From NCBI RefSeq assembly GCF_041886205.1, contig NZ_CP169029.1: a stretch of 64,000 bases of DNA. One strand, given 5' to 3'. A program made the position numbers. The DNA is from Escherichia coli. GTDB lineage: Bacteria > Pseudomonadota > Gammaproteobacteria > Enterobacterales > Enterobacteriaceae. Positions 3,001-6,000 of the stretch are shown in pieces. The first letter of the stretch is position 1; each line of letters opens with the position of its first letter.

Positions 3001-6000
3001 TCACGTGATAATGTTTCCTGCCTTTTTCCTTGCCAAACTCCCGACACCAGAAATAATGCAGGGTGGTTGCACGCACACGCTTGTTGGCACATCTTTTTTT
3101 CCGCTGGTAAGCCTGAATTTTGGCTTTCAGGGATGCAAAAAAACGAGAAATCACCGCTGAATCCGGATCGGGATCCATGATGGTGACAGGCATATACTCA
3201 GGGAAACGTAAATCCACCCGGATTAACGAGACGGCACGGTGCTGCGCCAGAGCACTGTCGAGAAGGCTGTCAAAACGGGATAACCAGTAAGCATTGTGTA
3301 TTGGTTGATTCATGATGAGAGATCTCCGTTGATTTGGATTGACTTCACATCATTAATCACCGCAGTAAAACTTTACGGCATCCTGTCATTAAGCAATGCT
3401 ACAACTCTCTGATTAAGAGAGATTGAAACGGAATAAACCATCCCGTAACGAAAAGAGAATCCTGCACGTAAGGTAAAAACACGCAGCAACAGCATGAATG
3501 GATTTGAAAACAATATGGATGACGAAAAAAGTCAAAAGGGAAACGGATCAACAGAACGTGCAAACAAAACATCAAAAACGCAATCAGAACGCTTTCTGGC
3601 GCTGTGAATCAACAACAACACCAAAACCTACAGCTTAACCACACAACTCAATCACAGAGCCGAATAGCGCGCTTAAAACCTGTTTACAGATAACCCCACC
3701 CCAAGAACAAAAACCACTAACATCAGAATCGATTTTCTTATCCAGAAAATGTTACGTTTCACTACACACCATAAAAACGATTAACCATCGATAACGTAAA
3801 CCTTATCTGAATCAAAACACCAAAACCGTTCATCACACTTTCGCAATGCAAGAAGAAACCTCATGACAAAAAGAATGACCTTACACGGAAAAGAAAAACG
3901 TCAGGAATCGTTAATGCCTCAATCTGATTGTTATCAAAAAATTCAGAAAGTCGTTTAACAGAATCGTCGTAAGCACATCGAAAAGAACGTCAGATTACTT
4001 CAGGAAAGCTCGGGTTGATTTAGCGTAAAGATACTTTTCTCATGCTAACGTCGAAACTCGAAATCTCAGGAAAGGTTAAACGTAACATCAGTAAAATCGA
4101 ATAGCAGATTGATTGCTGAAGCAGAAAGGTTTTACAGCAGCATTAAACTGATTTAGTTAACGTAAAGATTTACTAAACTGGATGTGTATATAGTATCATA
4201 CCGACATTCTCAACATCTTCAGACTTCCATACATACTGGGTGTTAATTTTTCACTTTTACAGCCAGCATGGAGTTTTCTGTCCTAAAAACAGAGCAGATT
4301 TACTCTGGAATTATTTTCTCTACCTCAGAAAACTTGCTCTCAATAATCTGCTATGGCTTCGTAGTTTCTGTTGTTCTTTTCATAAAAGTTATAAGTCATT
4401 GTCATAATCATACGATAATCACTTTATGTTAGTTTTTACTGTCATACGCTACTGACTTTTCAGTCATTGCCAGAAAGGGGGGCTTTTTACTTCCATTTCA
4501 CCACTCAACAAATGCAAAACTTGTCCAGTAAAGCGGACCACCTCTTGCTCACAAGCAACGAATCGTCTCCAGGAACAGCCCTCAAATATTGCAGAAACAA
4601 AAACAACAAAACCCTCATTATCACTGATGTTCGGAAATTTCCCTGAACAAAAAAAACGAAAACAAAATGAGACGCATTATCATTAATGTAGTCAAAAAGA
4701 CGTTATTGTGGCTTTCAGTTAAATGGTACTATTTCTCATAAATCCACTTAACTTTTTTTACTGATTCATCCCAGAGAACCACTTTATCAGTAAAAAATGA
4801 ATTATATAGATTGACGAGTTTTTCTGTTTCAGTTATTCCCAATGTATTATGTATAAGTTGTAGATATGCTTTTATCCAGATTTCTTTACCCTCCTTCCAC
4901 TTATCTATAAAACTTTCCAGCTTACTTAATCGTTGATTTATAAAAAACGAATCAATATCATGAAAAAGCTCAACAAGAAAACAGCACGAGACAATCTCAA
5001 CAAAAAACAAATTCTCCTTAAAAGCATTATAAAACTTTATCAACACATAACGAAAAACACCTCCTGTTAACCTTTCCTGTTCATAAAACAACAAGCCAAA
5101 AATAGGCGGAAATCTTTTAACCACACCACTTTTAATCCAGTAAGGATGATGATTAGTCTTTACTGGCAGTGAATAAAAGAACAATTCGGTTTCTCTTTTC
5201 CCACCACAAACAGACAAAACAGTCTTATAAAGACTTTTTGAATCACTATATCCTGACACTCCAGACGAATTAGCAGGGTATTTTCTTTTTACTTTTTGCC
5301 TTAATGGAGCTGGAAGGATAATAAAACGGGATGGTAGATAACAATCGCTTTCAGAAGACCTGCATTCGCACACATGAAGATTTATATTTACATCCGGACA
5401 ATTCAAAAACCACACAGAATAATTATCGCCCCGTTTGCAATATGAAACCCATGAATAAATTGCATAAAGTTCAGAAAGTACATCTAACTCTGCTTTTGAT
5501 TTAAATGTGATACCGTTTCTTCGAATTCTCGTTTCCAGCGTTCTCCATGCCGGAGTTTTCAGTATCTCACGAACTTTTTTATTAAGTTCAGCCAGCGATG
5601 GTCCCTGCTCCTGTTTATGTTTCTTCCTGCTGTTAATGATTTCTCTTTCTTTTACTAATTTTTTCTTACTTTTGGGTCCTTTTATCTTTCTTGGCAATGC
5701 TTCATTTAATCTGTGAACAGGATTTTGCTCTCTTCTTTTTTTGAGCTCACAAAACCTCTCATAATGTTTTCTGCACAGTCTTTTCTCCACTGCCATTTTT
5801 ACTGAGAAAACCTGATTGTTACAATTTTTTCTGACACATTTGTTTTTACGTCCGGTCATCCTCTCATCTCCTGAAACCGCAGTATGTCATTAGTTCCCGT
5901 TCGGAAAAACTCACTTCATACTCCATTACACTTTAACGATCATGTCCGTAATTCAGACATTCCATCATTTTTCACGTCCATATTACATGAATGATAAACC

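Follow-up and report, generated by a model that had tools for sequence, protein, structure and literature searches.

A mosaic, AT-rich non-coding region beside a Gp2/YfjJ-family gene in a CP4-type island of Escherichia coli

Genomic Context of the Gene-Free Stretch

The gene-free stretch occupied positions 3314-4728 (1,415 nt) of the window, i.e., the whole 64,000-nt piece of E. coli DNA that was analyzed, and extended from the start codon of a Gp2/YfjJ-family gene to the stop codon of a gene encoding a 376-aa cargo protein (Table 1). The preliminary description had set its left boundary at 3361, which has to be moved to 3314, directly beside the start of this gene. The Gp2-family protein contained HUH and Tyr motifs, a Pfam REP_ORF2-G2P domain, and a Rep/NS1-like fold. 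The 376-aa cargo protein had no family match in Pfam or PADLOC, and other islands carried different genes in the same slot.

The two flanks belonged to a CP4-type (P4-integrase-like) island backbone, as indicated by the synteny of the window ORFs and their Pfam domains with the annotation of NZ_CM171611.1 and with sister islands. The leftward module ran from the Gp2/HUH-Rep-like gene through a 196-aa gene to AlpA, and the rightward module contained genes for a GTPase, an HTH regulator, DUF905, DUF932, antirestriction, RadC, and CbtA/CbeA proteins. NZ_CM171611.1 was the closest relative; its island was near-identical, with 99% identity over 3314-4190. Gene families and order were the same as in the cryptic P4-like islands CP4-57, CP4-44, and CP4-6 of E. 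coli K-12 and in related pathogenicity islands, such as the SRL PAI (PMC6980539). The families in common were the YfjJ/Gp2 family, AlpA, the YfjP/YeeP GTPase, the HTH regulator, DUF905, DUF932, antirestriction, RadC, and CbtA/CbeA, and cargo likewise occupied the interval that separates the YfjJ-like and GTPase genes. In contrast to the K-12 CP4 islands, the Gp2-family gene was directed away from the GTPase module and was the first gene of the AlpA operon.

A match to the region was identified in 1,878 of 5,426 complete E. coli genomes; approximately one-third of these genomes thus contain it, without annotation. Both core modules were also present in Morganellaceae and Brenneria, where the intergenic regions were 400-750 nt long and unskewed, and in the cross-genus comparison the upstream regions of distant Gp2 relatives were shorter, unskewed, and could not be aligned with the stretch. 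The 243-aa Gp2 subfamily and its 1.4-2.1-kb non-coding upstream region were both restricted to E. coli-type sequences. Phage, viral, and plasmid collections yielded no DNA match to the region except for a few E. coli plasmids, and no description of the intergenic region was found in the literature searched.

Table 1. Features of the gene-free stretch and its flanking genes (window coordinates).
Feature	Position	Strand	Description
Gp2/YfjJ-family gene	2582..3313	-	243 aa, HUH Rep-like endonuclease; flank, outside the ORF-free stretch
Invariant block by the Gp2 gene	3314..3381	-	RBS GGAG at 3324-3327 (minus strand); probably promoter/operator and short 5' UTR
Segment A, distal part	3382..3595		Variable, indel-rich, non-coding
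Segment B, A/C-rich core (G/T-rich on the Gp2-sense strand)	3596..3919		Putative dispensable spacer with relic skew
Segment C1	3920..4181		Core-island non-coding module; short repeated motifs ACGTAA and CAGRAA
Array-deletion junction	4181..4189		Single ATGTGTAT left in the window
Segment C2	4182..4320		Conserved TATAGT-containing block; inverted repeat 4212-4222/4236-4244; bidirectional terminator-like hairpin 4290-4307
Segment D	4321..4728	-	3' flank (probably 3' UTR) of the 376-aa cargo gene, with which it travels
Cargo gene	4729..5859	-	376 aa, GC 0.30-0.36; flank, outside the ORF-free stretch

Composition and Coding Capacity

As the preliminary description had stated, no ORF of 60 aa or more was present on either strand between the YfjJ-family and 376-aa genes; the longest ORFs within 3314-4728 were 59 and 58 aa. 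This absence is no more than expected by chance and is ordinary for non-coding DNA of such composition: 28% of composition-matched shuffles of 3314-4728 also lacked an ORF of at least 60 aa, and the mean longest ORF of the shuffles was 70 aa. The AT-rich and non-coding character of the stretch was confirmed, with a GC content of 0.374 vs. 0.503 over the whole window and no ORF kept in any frame across relatives. A plus-strand ORF of 37 aa (3494..3607) in segment A was broken by indels in most relatives, and a 57-aa ORF annotated in some genomes was disrupted by 2-nt or 13-nt indels in others.

The strong A/C skew attributed to the entire stretch was observed at approximately 3450-3900, where A+C reached 0.68 (A 0.44, C 0.24, G 0.15, and T 0.17), the most extreme 400-nt A+C window of the 64 kb at about 5 SD above the mean. 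The skew plot indicated that it faded or reversed elsewhere: A+C was 0.52, i.e., near symmetry, at 3900-4200; a T-rich lean in the opposite direction (A+C 0.48) was found at 4200-4480; and moderate A/C richness (0.61) returned at 4480-4728.

A hidden gene or pseudogene was rejected on the basis of the lack of a conserved frame and of protein similarity in tblastn. It is likewise highly improbable that the stretch is the decayed remnant of an earlier cargo or core gene. Several alternative genes occupy this cargo hot spot, and 23% of the variants carried an intact plus-strand gene for a 176-aa protein there, which would be consistent with such a remnant. However, nothing significant was obtained within 3314-4728 when the 176-aa protein and ORFs of other variants were used as tblastn queries, no frame was open across relatives, and the frames that were open differed between them. 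Coding strands are typically purine-skewed, whereas the A+C bias is an amino/keto skew and not of this coding type, and DNA similarity was absent from phage and plasmid collections outside E. coli.

Segment Structure among Related Islands

The preliminary description had treated the stretch as one single feature. Comparison with approximately 80 variant copies of this E. coli island instead resolved four segments (A-D) with separate evolutionary histories, and this map separates core-island from cargo-linked sequence.

Segment A (3314-3595) was invariant only in its first 40-70 nt, and identity within 3382-3531 was 0.80 with 16% gaps. Segment B was present in 66% of the variants, replaced by the variant with the 176-aa gene in 23%, missing in 6%, and truncated at approximately 187 nt in 5%; islands disrupted by IS elements retained only about 187 nt upstream of the Gp2 ATG. 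Sequences of one type of variant (L021) showed a deletion from 3596 to approximately 3850 between short ACGCTTT direct repeats, and those of another (L003/L020) contained 1.15 kb with the 176-aa gene in place of window positions 3500-3800, an interval that covers the last part of A and the bulk of B. Where segment B was retained, its identity was 0.895 and its gap fraction 0.007, indicating few indels.

Segment C1 was found in 78 of 83 unique variants and was enriched in the hexamers ACGTAA (5 observed vs. 0.77 expected) and CAGAAA (9 observed vs. 1.7 expected). Segment C2 was common to all island types and contained no indels. Its terminator-like hairpin (4290-4307) was matched on both strands in the scan and was degenerate in the L004 and L005 variants. 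Homology to other island types stopped sharply at approximately 4320. Beyond this point, segment D had an identity of 0.968 among the five sequences with the 376-aa gene and 0.63 across all nine, and it co-occurred with this gene in metagenome variants.

Sequence Diversity and Constraint

Among 38 unique variants, nucleotide diversity (pi) was 0.000 over 3314-3353 and 0.019 over 3314-3363, as compared with 0.101 at the third codon positions of the Gp2 gene. The block adjoining the Gp2 start was nearly invariant in 18 loci, including divergent island types. Over the non-coding positions 3364-4213, pi was 0.106, close to the value of the third codon positions, and polymorphic columns made up 43% of the non-coding part and 27% of the Gp2 gene. 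Segment B (pi of approximately 0.08-0.17) was on par with synonymous sites, and C2 was the most diverse part (pi 0.21-0.23 over 4214-4320). The lowest-diversity patches of C1 were located at 4064-4173 (pi 0.04-0.07), and those of B at 3674-3693 (pi 0.008) and 3774-3793 (pi 0.021); the clustering of low-diversity windows was weakly above chance (p 0.02-0.05). Clear constraint was confined to the 40-70 nt by the Gp2 start codon, the rest evolving at the rate of synonymous sites. The preliminary description had made its reading depend in part on conservation between homologous islands: the region does recur in them, but it changes at a neutral rate.

The skew of segment B is eroding. Changes from A/C to G/T outnumbered those from G/T to A/C (67 vs. 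32, p=0.0006), with per-site rates of 0.259 and 0.250, respectively, although polarization by the minority allele is a crude measure. A continuing strand-biased mutation as the source of the skew was rejected in view of the symmetric per-site rates together with the erosion.

Transcripts and Protein-Binding Signals

A search with covariance models (cmscan, window 1-12000) gave no Rfam match at E<=1 except a chance PhotoRC-I hit within the Gp2 gene (24 bits vs. a gathering threshold of 45). Folding was no better than that of shuffled sequences in segments A, B, and C on the relevant strands (z of -0.37, -0.80, -0.20, -0.80, and -0.70), and the RNAalifold covariation terms (-3.4, -1.3, and -0.9 kcal/mol) corresponded to weak consensus structures with little covariation. 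The inverted repeat 4212-4222/4236-4244 was paired to 89.9%, as compared with 89.7% in shuffles, and it was broken in several variants; because pairing did not differ from that of shuffles, the repeat had no support from covariation. The suggestion that the stretch is a source of non-coding RNA is thus not borne out, and annotation of an RNA gene here would be unwarranted.

There is very little chance that the plus strand encodes a trans-acting RNA, either a CrcZ/CsrB-like titrator of Hfq or CsrA or an sRNA that starts from TATAGT at 4189 and ends at the hairpin 4290-4307. Similar to CrcZ, which acts on Hfq, and CsrB/CsrC, which act on CsrA, the region is several hundred nucleotides long and A-rich with little predicted structure on the plus strand (MFE of -35.6 kcal/mol per 324 nt in segment B), and many AAN and ACGGA/CAGGA strings were seen in B by eye. 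The -10-like TATAGT of C2 is also followed, approximately 100 nt on, by a hairpin with a U-rich tail. Unlike in these sponge RNAs, the Hfq and CsrA motifs, i.e., (ARN)3-4, AANAANAA, and GGA, were not above composition, their counts falling within those of dinucleotide shuffles (p 0.1-0.8), apart from A.GGA in one sub-window (p=0.013, uncorrected). Furthermore, a promoter/terminator pair was lacking, no plus-strand promoter was called for B, and conservation was not above neutral. For the putative sRNA, Rfam gave no match, the C2 consensus structure amounted to only -5.7 kcal/mol, the terminator stem was lost in L004/L005, and C2 was the segment of highest diversity.

The preliminary description had also proposed a very long T-rich leader for the YfjJ-family gene, which is not favored. 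Such a leader would start at a Gp2 promoter 0.9-1.4 kb upstream or arise by read-through from the cargo gene, and its G/U-rich RNA would escape Rho while containing attenuators or antitermination targets; we consider this quite unlikely. It would agree with several observations: there was no sigma-70-like promoter near the Gp2 gene, and the minus-strand RNA of B was C-poor (C 0.13-0.15, G 0.24-0.26) and would for this reason be a poor Rho substrate. The minus strand contained terminator-like hairpins at 4307-4290, 3496-3480, and 3444-3425, and an AlpA-family protein is encoded downstream of Gp2; AlpA-family proteins act as antiterminators in Pseudomonas. On the other hand, the same hairpins lie as potential terminators along the way, and two of them (3496-3480 and 3444-3425) are in the least conserved, indel-rich part. 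Folding z-scores for the leader (-0.4 and -0.8) were not better than those of shuffles and covariation was absent, B was deleted or replaced in approximately 30% of the variants, and the IS-truncated islands keep only 187 nt. Beyond the 40-70 invariant nucleotides by the start codon, diversity was neutral.

Within 3314-4370, the scan called no promoter on the plus or the minus strand. The promoter role of the block at 3314-3381 is only putative because there was no sigma-70 consensus match near the Gp2 gene.

A role as an H-NS-bound silencer, as had been proposed, is retained only in a generic form: H-NS binding is plausible because the stretch is AT-rich, but the high-affinity motif (TCGATAAATT-like) occurred at chance rate, with two matches (<=2 mismatches) in 1.4 kb, a number in line with the 74 matches over the 64 kb. 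Similar to acquired DNA silenced by H-NS, the stretch has a GC content of 0.35-0.40 vs. 0.50 for the genome and lies within a mobile island, and genes for an H-NS paralogue are present in some of the sister islands themselves. In contrast to specific H-NS targets, it lacked motif enrichment and did not differ from the equally AT-rich 376-aa gene.

A Repeat Array Missing from the Window

At 4181/4182, the junction of C1 and C2, related islands contained an array of short repeats with units of approximately 13 nt and 24 nt (AAAAYACTTAGTA / AAAAYAYGTGTAT), including the palindrome AACACTT-N4-AAGTGTT; in L007 and L005, TRF reported a period of 13 and find_repeats gave repeat families. According to blast estimates, all other variants that contain both C1 and C2 have an array of 83-217 nt, as against 0 nt for the window. 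A motif-based measurement of this interval gave 7 nt for the window and, for the 71 others, 77-211 nt with a median of 134. The closest relative, NZ_CM171611.1, retains the array. The window kept a single 8-nt copy of the unit at the junction, no copies of the unit were found elsewhere in the window with up to two mismatches, and neither tandem repeats nor iterons were detected in the stretch itself. The island in the window has lost the array, unlike all other variants examined.

The array could belong to a binding or nicking locus in module C for the Gp2/YfjJ-family protein, serving to start rolling-circle replication or the transfer of the island after excision, or to an operator array for an island HTH regulator. 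We regard this as rather unlikely. In an origin, a single-stranded DNA stage would have left the G/T-rich Gp2-sense strand of B as its relic, and the element in the window would be crippled because its array is deleted. The possibility is suggested by the adjoining gene for an HUH initiator with the motifs, domain, and fold given above, by the presence of the array with variable copy number in every other variant, and by the palindrome inside it. Distant Gp2 relatives have direct repeats of their own, with a spacing of 22-23 nt, at 600-750 nt upstream of the gene. In a gut-evolution study of E. coli Nissle, an integrase and a Gp2-family gene are reported to have gained copy number (10.1101/364505), which also counts in favor of an origin. 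However, the repeat sequence differs from that of the distant relatives, the inverted repeat by the array lacks covariation and is broken in several variants, and the array is approximately 870 nt away from the Gp2 gene. A neutral minisatellite could also account for short repeats of variable length, phage and viral collections do not contain the region, and the window itself has no array.

The array is similar to iteron or "bind + nic" origins (P4 ori/crr and pMV158-type double-strand origins) in that relatives hold 5-12 short direct or inverted repeats, some of them spaced at 22-24 nt, with an inverted repeat beside the cluster and a gene for an HUH protein nearby. Unlike in the "bind + nic" origins, the copies are irregular in number and spacing, the hairpin shows no covariation, and the array is missing from the window. 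The array repeats are also unrelated to the P4 octamers. The region further resembles the intergenic region of Ff phages (f1/M13), which is non-coding, is located directly upstream of a gene for a G2P-family HUH initiator, and has initiator-binding repeats near it (candidates in the present case) and a T-rich gene-sense strand. It differs in having no conserved hairpins and no recognizable nick site, in its neutral evolution, in being three times longer, and in being chromosomal and not found in phage or viral collections.

A more specific form, in which module C (the AAAAYACTTAGTA / AYGTGTAT array plus the inverted repeat, approximately 0.9 kb upstream of the gene) is a hitherto undescribed origin, for rolling-circle replication or for transfer, that is recognized by the YfjJ/Gp2-family HUH protein, and the G/T-rich Gp2-sense strand of B is the fading footprint of a single-stranded DNA phase, is unlikely. 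If true, the very common "cryptic" CP4-type islands would be self-replicating or mobilizable, and the copy in the window would be a natural origin-deletion mutant. An origin formed by the array and the protein would also explain the amplification or movement of "cryptic" islands. Two further motifs were viewed by eye: DnaA boxes had one near-match (TTATCCAGA) at approximately 3738-3746, which varied among relatives, and (ACCA)n sites of the parvovirus NS1 type were about as numerous as composition predicts.

Interpretation of the Region

The explanation that we favor, with somewhat better than even confidence, is that the stretch is a mosaic and mostly neutral control-and-spacer region of a CP4-type island, situated where two divergent core modules flank a hot spot of cargo insertion. 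The A/C-rich core would be a relic spacer without sequence-specific function and, because it is 61% A+T, would probably be coated by H-NS like other foreign DNA. Since its plus-strand RNA is predicted to be unstructured with C well above G, and hence prone to Rho, antisense transcription would be expected to end there. The functional parts would be the Gp2-proximal block with the RBS and putative promoter, and module C, whose array in intact islands is a candidate protein-binding platform. Segment D may serve as the cargo gene's 3' UTR, with its probable end at the hairpin 4290-4307. The finding is an ordinary one, i.e., AT-rich and mostly unconstrained spacer DNA in a common E. coli island, at its hot spot for cargo.

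One point runs counter to a neutral spacer: approximately 75% of the variants have retained a 1.4-2.1-kb ORF-free region upstream of Gp2. The deletion bias of bacteria should shorten such a region, but the argument is weak, as the variants are too close (synonymous diversity of about 0.1). Also at odds with a neutral spacer are the few indels in B, the low-diversity patches, and some over-represented hexamers.

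Mosaic Structure of the Intergenic Region

The CP4-type island in the window contained a 1,415-nt gap (3314-4728) between the Gp2/YfjJ-family gene and a 376-aa cargo gene. Its leftward module (minus strand) comprised the Gp2-family gene, a 196-aa gene, and an AlpA-like gene, and its rightward module (plus strand, from 6044) encoded a YeeP/YfjP-like GTPase, an HTH regulator, DUF905, DUF932, antirestriction, RadC, and CbtA/CbeA proteins; these flanking runs place the gap between two divergent core modules, in a variable cargo slot that held 407-aa or 262/316-aa genes in other islands. 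As defined by alignments, the stretch is a mosaic of four segments, A to D. The favored reading, held with slightly more confidence than doubt, is that of a mosaic at a cargo hot spot, made up of mostly neutral spacer and control DNA.

Features of the stretch, its flanking genes, and distant loci
Feature	Coordinates	Strand	Remark
Gp2/YfjJ-family gene	2582-3313	minus	
376-aa gene	4729-5859	minus	
Segment A	3314-3595		linked to Gp2 gene
Segment B	3596-3919		A/C-rich core; in 66% of variants
Segment C	3920-4320		common to nearly all island types
Segment D	4321-4728		linked to 376-aa gene
Composition zone	3900-4200		close to symmetric
Composition zone	4200-4480		T-rich
Composition zone	4480-4728		moderately A/C-rich
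Direct repeats, Brenneria locus (L016)	5293-5369		
Direct repeats, sequencing-run contig (L017)	5197-5255		

Among complete E. coli genomes, 1,878 of 5,426 matched the region (419 with at least 80% length coverage), and another 80 loci came from scanning metagenomes for an invariant 30-mer, for a total of 83 unique variants. RefSeq annotation over the region was empty save for an occasional 57-aa ORF, phage and viral collections contained no match, and the literature searched yielded no paper describing the intergenic region 3314-4728. Two-module synteny was kept in Morganellaceae, Brenneria, and metagenome and sequencing-run contigs, where the intergenic region spanned 400-1,350 nt without A/C skew.

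Positions 3314-3353 of segment A were invariant (pi 0.000) and included a GGAG ribosome-binding site, and many indels occurred beyond 3382 (gaps 16%). In 5% of variants, the region was cut ~187 nt ahead of the Gp2 start codon by IS66 or other insertions. A long leader of the Gp2 gene, as proposed in the preliminary description, is quite unlikely. The ~187-nt interruption recurred in metagenome variants L042, L043, L071, and L092 (IS66-family elements or other DNA), so that this site may be a repeated target of breakage or insertion. Segment B was mostly deleted between short ACGCTTT direct repeats in 6% of variants (L021 type), and in 23% (L003/L020 type) 1.15 kb with a 176-aa plus-strand gene took the place of window 3500-3800; the A/C-rich core thus appears dispensable. 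This 176-aa protein is WP_000778605.1 (L003 4116-4646; L020 5684-6214). Segment D was 97% identical across islands with the 376-aa gene and otherwise unalignable.

Composition and Constraint

The reported lack of any ORF of at least 60 aa was borne out (longest 59 aa), and it lies at chance level because 28% of composition-matched shuffles of 3314-4728 also lacked one. The reported A/C skew held for 3450-3900 (A+C 0.68, the top 400-nt value of the 64 kb, ~5 SD off the mean) but was local. Changes in B polarised by minority allele, an approximate procedure, were A/C>G/T in 67 cases vs. G/T>A/C in 32 (p = 0.0006), with equal per-site rates of 0.259 and 0.250; the direction was the same with 13 sequences. 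Selection and ongoing strand-biased mutation were both rejected as keepers of the skew. The B skew is eroding and is a relic, relaxing towards symmetry.

Within E. coli variants, to which the comparison was limited (synonymous diversity ~0.1), Gp2 diversity at codon positions 1, 2, and 3 was 0.064, 0.039, and 0.101, and non-coding 3364-4213 averaged 0.106 with 43% polymorphic columns (38 unique B-containing variants), recombination between islands blurring such rate comparisons. C2 (4182-4320) past 4214 reached 0.21-0.23, exceeding synonymous sites. Low-diversity patches (e.g., 3674-3693, 3774-3793, 4064-4173) clustered marginally above chance (p 0.02-0.05). The longest run of invariant columns, 12 nt, did not exceed chance (p 0.32).

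RNA, Motif, and Coding Potential

A source of non-coding RNA had also been proposed; this was not supported, given no Rfam matches in the stretch, folding z-scores of -0.2 to -0.8, and small covariation terms in the consensus structures (-47 kcal/mol over 400 columns for the G/U-rich strand, and -10.6 over 282 and -5.7 over 140), and a trans-acting RNA is most improbable. A hairpin at 4212-4222/4236-4244, compensatory-looking in nine sequences, was paired to the same degree as shuffles (89.9% in 23 variants vs. 89.7%), and a terminator-like hairpin at 4290-4307 was degenerate in the related islands L004 and L005. Hfq (ARN)n, AANAANAA, and CsrA GGA motifs showed no excess over dinucleotide composition.

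For the proposed H-NS silencer, high-affinity motifs occurred at chance frequency, whereas AT-richness stood (GC 0.374 vs. 0.503 in the window); H-NS would probably coat the A/C-rich core owing solely to this. Plus-strand RNA of the core may be Rho-sensitive, since it is predicted to be unstructured with C above G. Close to the Gp2 module, sister islands encoded an H-NS-family protein of their own and a ProQ/FinO-family protein with a frameshift (L001 1875-2315; L005 1-209).

Two hexamers exceeded expectation, ACGTAA (5 vs. 0.77) and CAGAAA (9 vs. 1.7), which hints at candidate short protein-binding sites in C. The ACGTAA/TTACGT copies lay at 3466, 3752, 3794, 4080, and 4160, three of them in the lowest-diversity patches, with (T)TAACGTAAA as the usual form; ACGTAA could be a regulator binding site.

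No open frame in the stretch was kept across relatives, the annotated 57-aa ORF being broken elsewhere by 2-nt or 13-nt indels, and neither the alternative 176-aa gene nor ORFs of rearranged variants showed any protein similarity to the stretch; a decayed pseudogene is very unlikely. A 54-aa ORF (4268-4432, plus) with a hydrophobic helix (LLSIICYGFVVSVVLFIKVI) crossed the C/D boundary; it was intact in L001 and L002 and is probably not a gene because of early stops in L004 and L005.

Loss of the Repeat Array and a Possible Role of Module C

Every other variant with both C1 (3920-4181) and C2 harbored a repeat array at 4181/4182, estimated at 83-217 nt by blast; the motif-based interval was 77-211 nt (median 134) in 71 other variants and 7 nt in the window. 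The units (~13 and ~24 nt; AAAAYACTTAGTA, AAAAYAYGTGTAT) contained the palindrome AACACTT-N4-AAGTGTT. The window is a unique array-deletion allele, because a single ATGTGTAT is left while the other variants and the nearest relative, NZ_CM171611.1 (99% identical over 3314-4190), have the array; recombination between ATGTGTAT repeats apparently gave rise to the deletion. Window 1-4190 was 99-100% identical to this relative (L024, a buffalo-milk strain); past ~4190 the array was deleted and the cargo gene differed (376 vs. 407 aa), so that the island is a recent recombinant. Distant Gp2-family loci carried direct repeats of their own (22-23 nt spacing), located 600-750 nt upstream of Gp2, and did not share the E. 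coli repeat sequence.

Under the spacer and control-region reading, the functional parts would probably be just two, namely the ribosome-binding site/promoter block beside the Gp2 gene and module C, whose array the window has lost. The main rival, itself unlikely, takes module C for an origin or operator serving the HUH Rep-like protein. The Gp2-family protein is Rep-like in several features, with HUH (HYHVILLL) and Tyr (YLVKYETK) motifs and the Pfam domains YagK_YfjJ_C and REP_ORF2-G2P. A copy-number gain reported for an integrase and a Gp2-family gene in E. coli Nissle (10.1101/364505) fits this idea, being compatible with it rather than a test.

The 243-aa Gp2 subfamily was essentially limited to E. 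coli-type sequences. Its residues 153-189 form a ~37-residue low-complexity insertion (pLDDT <50) that separates the HUH core from the Tyr motif and is absent from 189-195-aa relatives of other genera. A weak PhotoRC-I (Rfam) match inside the coding sequence (2823-2890, minus; 24 bits vs. a gathering score of 45) is almost certainly chance. The 376-aa cargo gene was of very low GC (0.30-0.36), and its protein had no Pfam or PADLOC match; in the equivalent slot of sister islands it swaps with unrelated genes (407 aa; 262 + 316 aa), as would a defence or accessory cargo gene.
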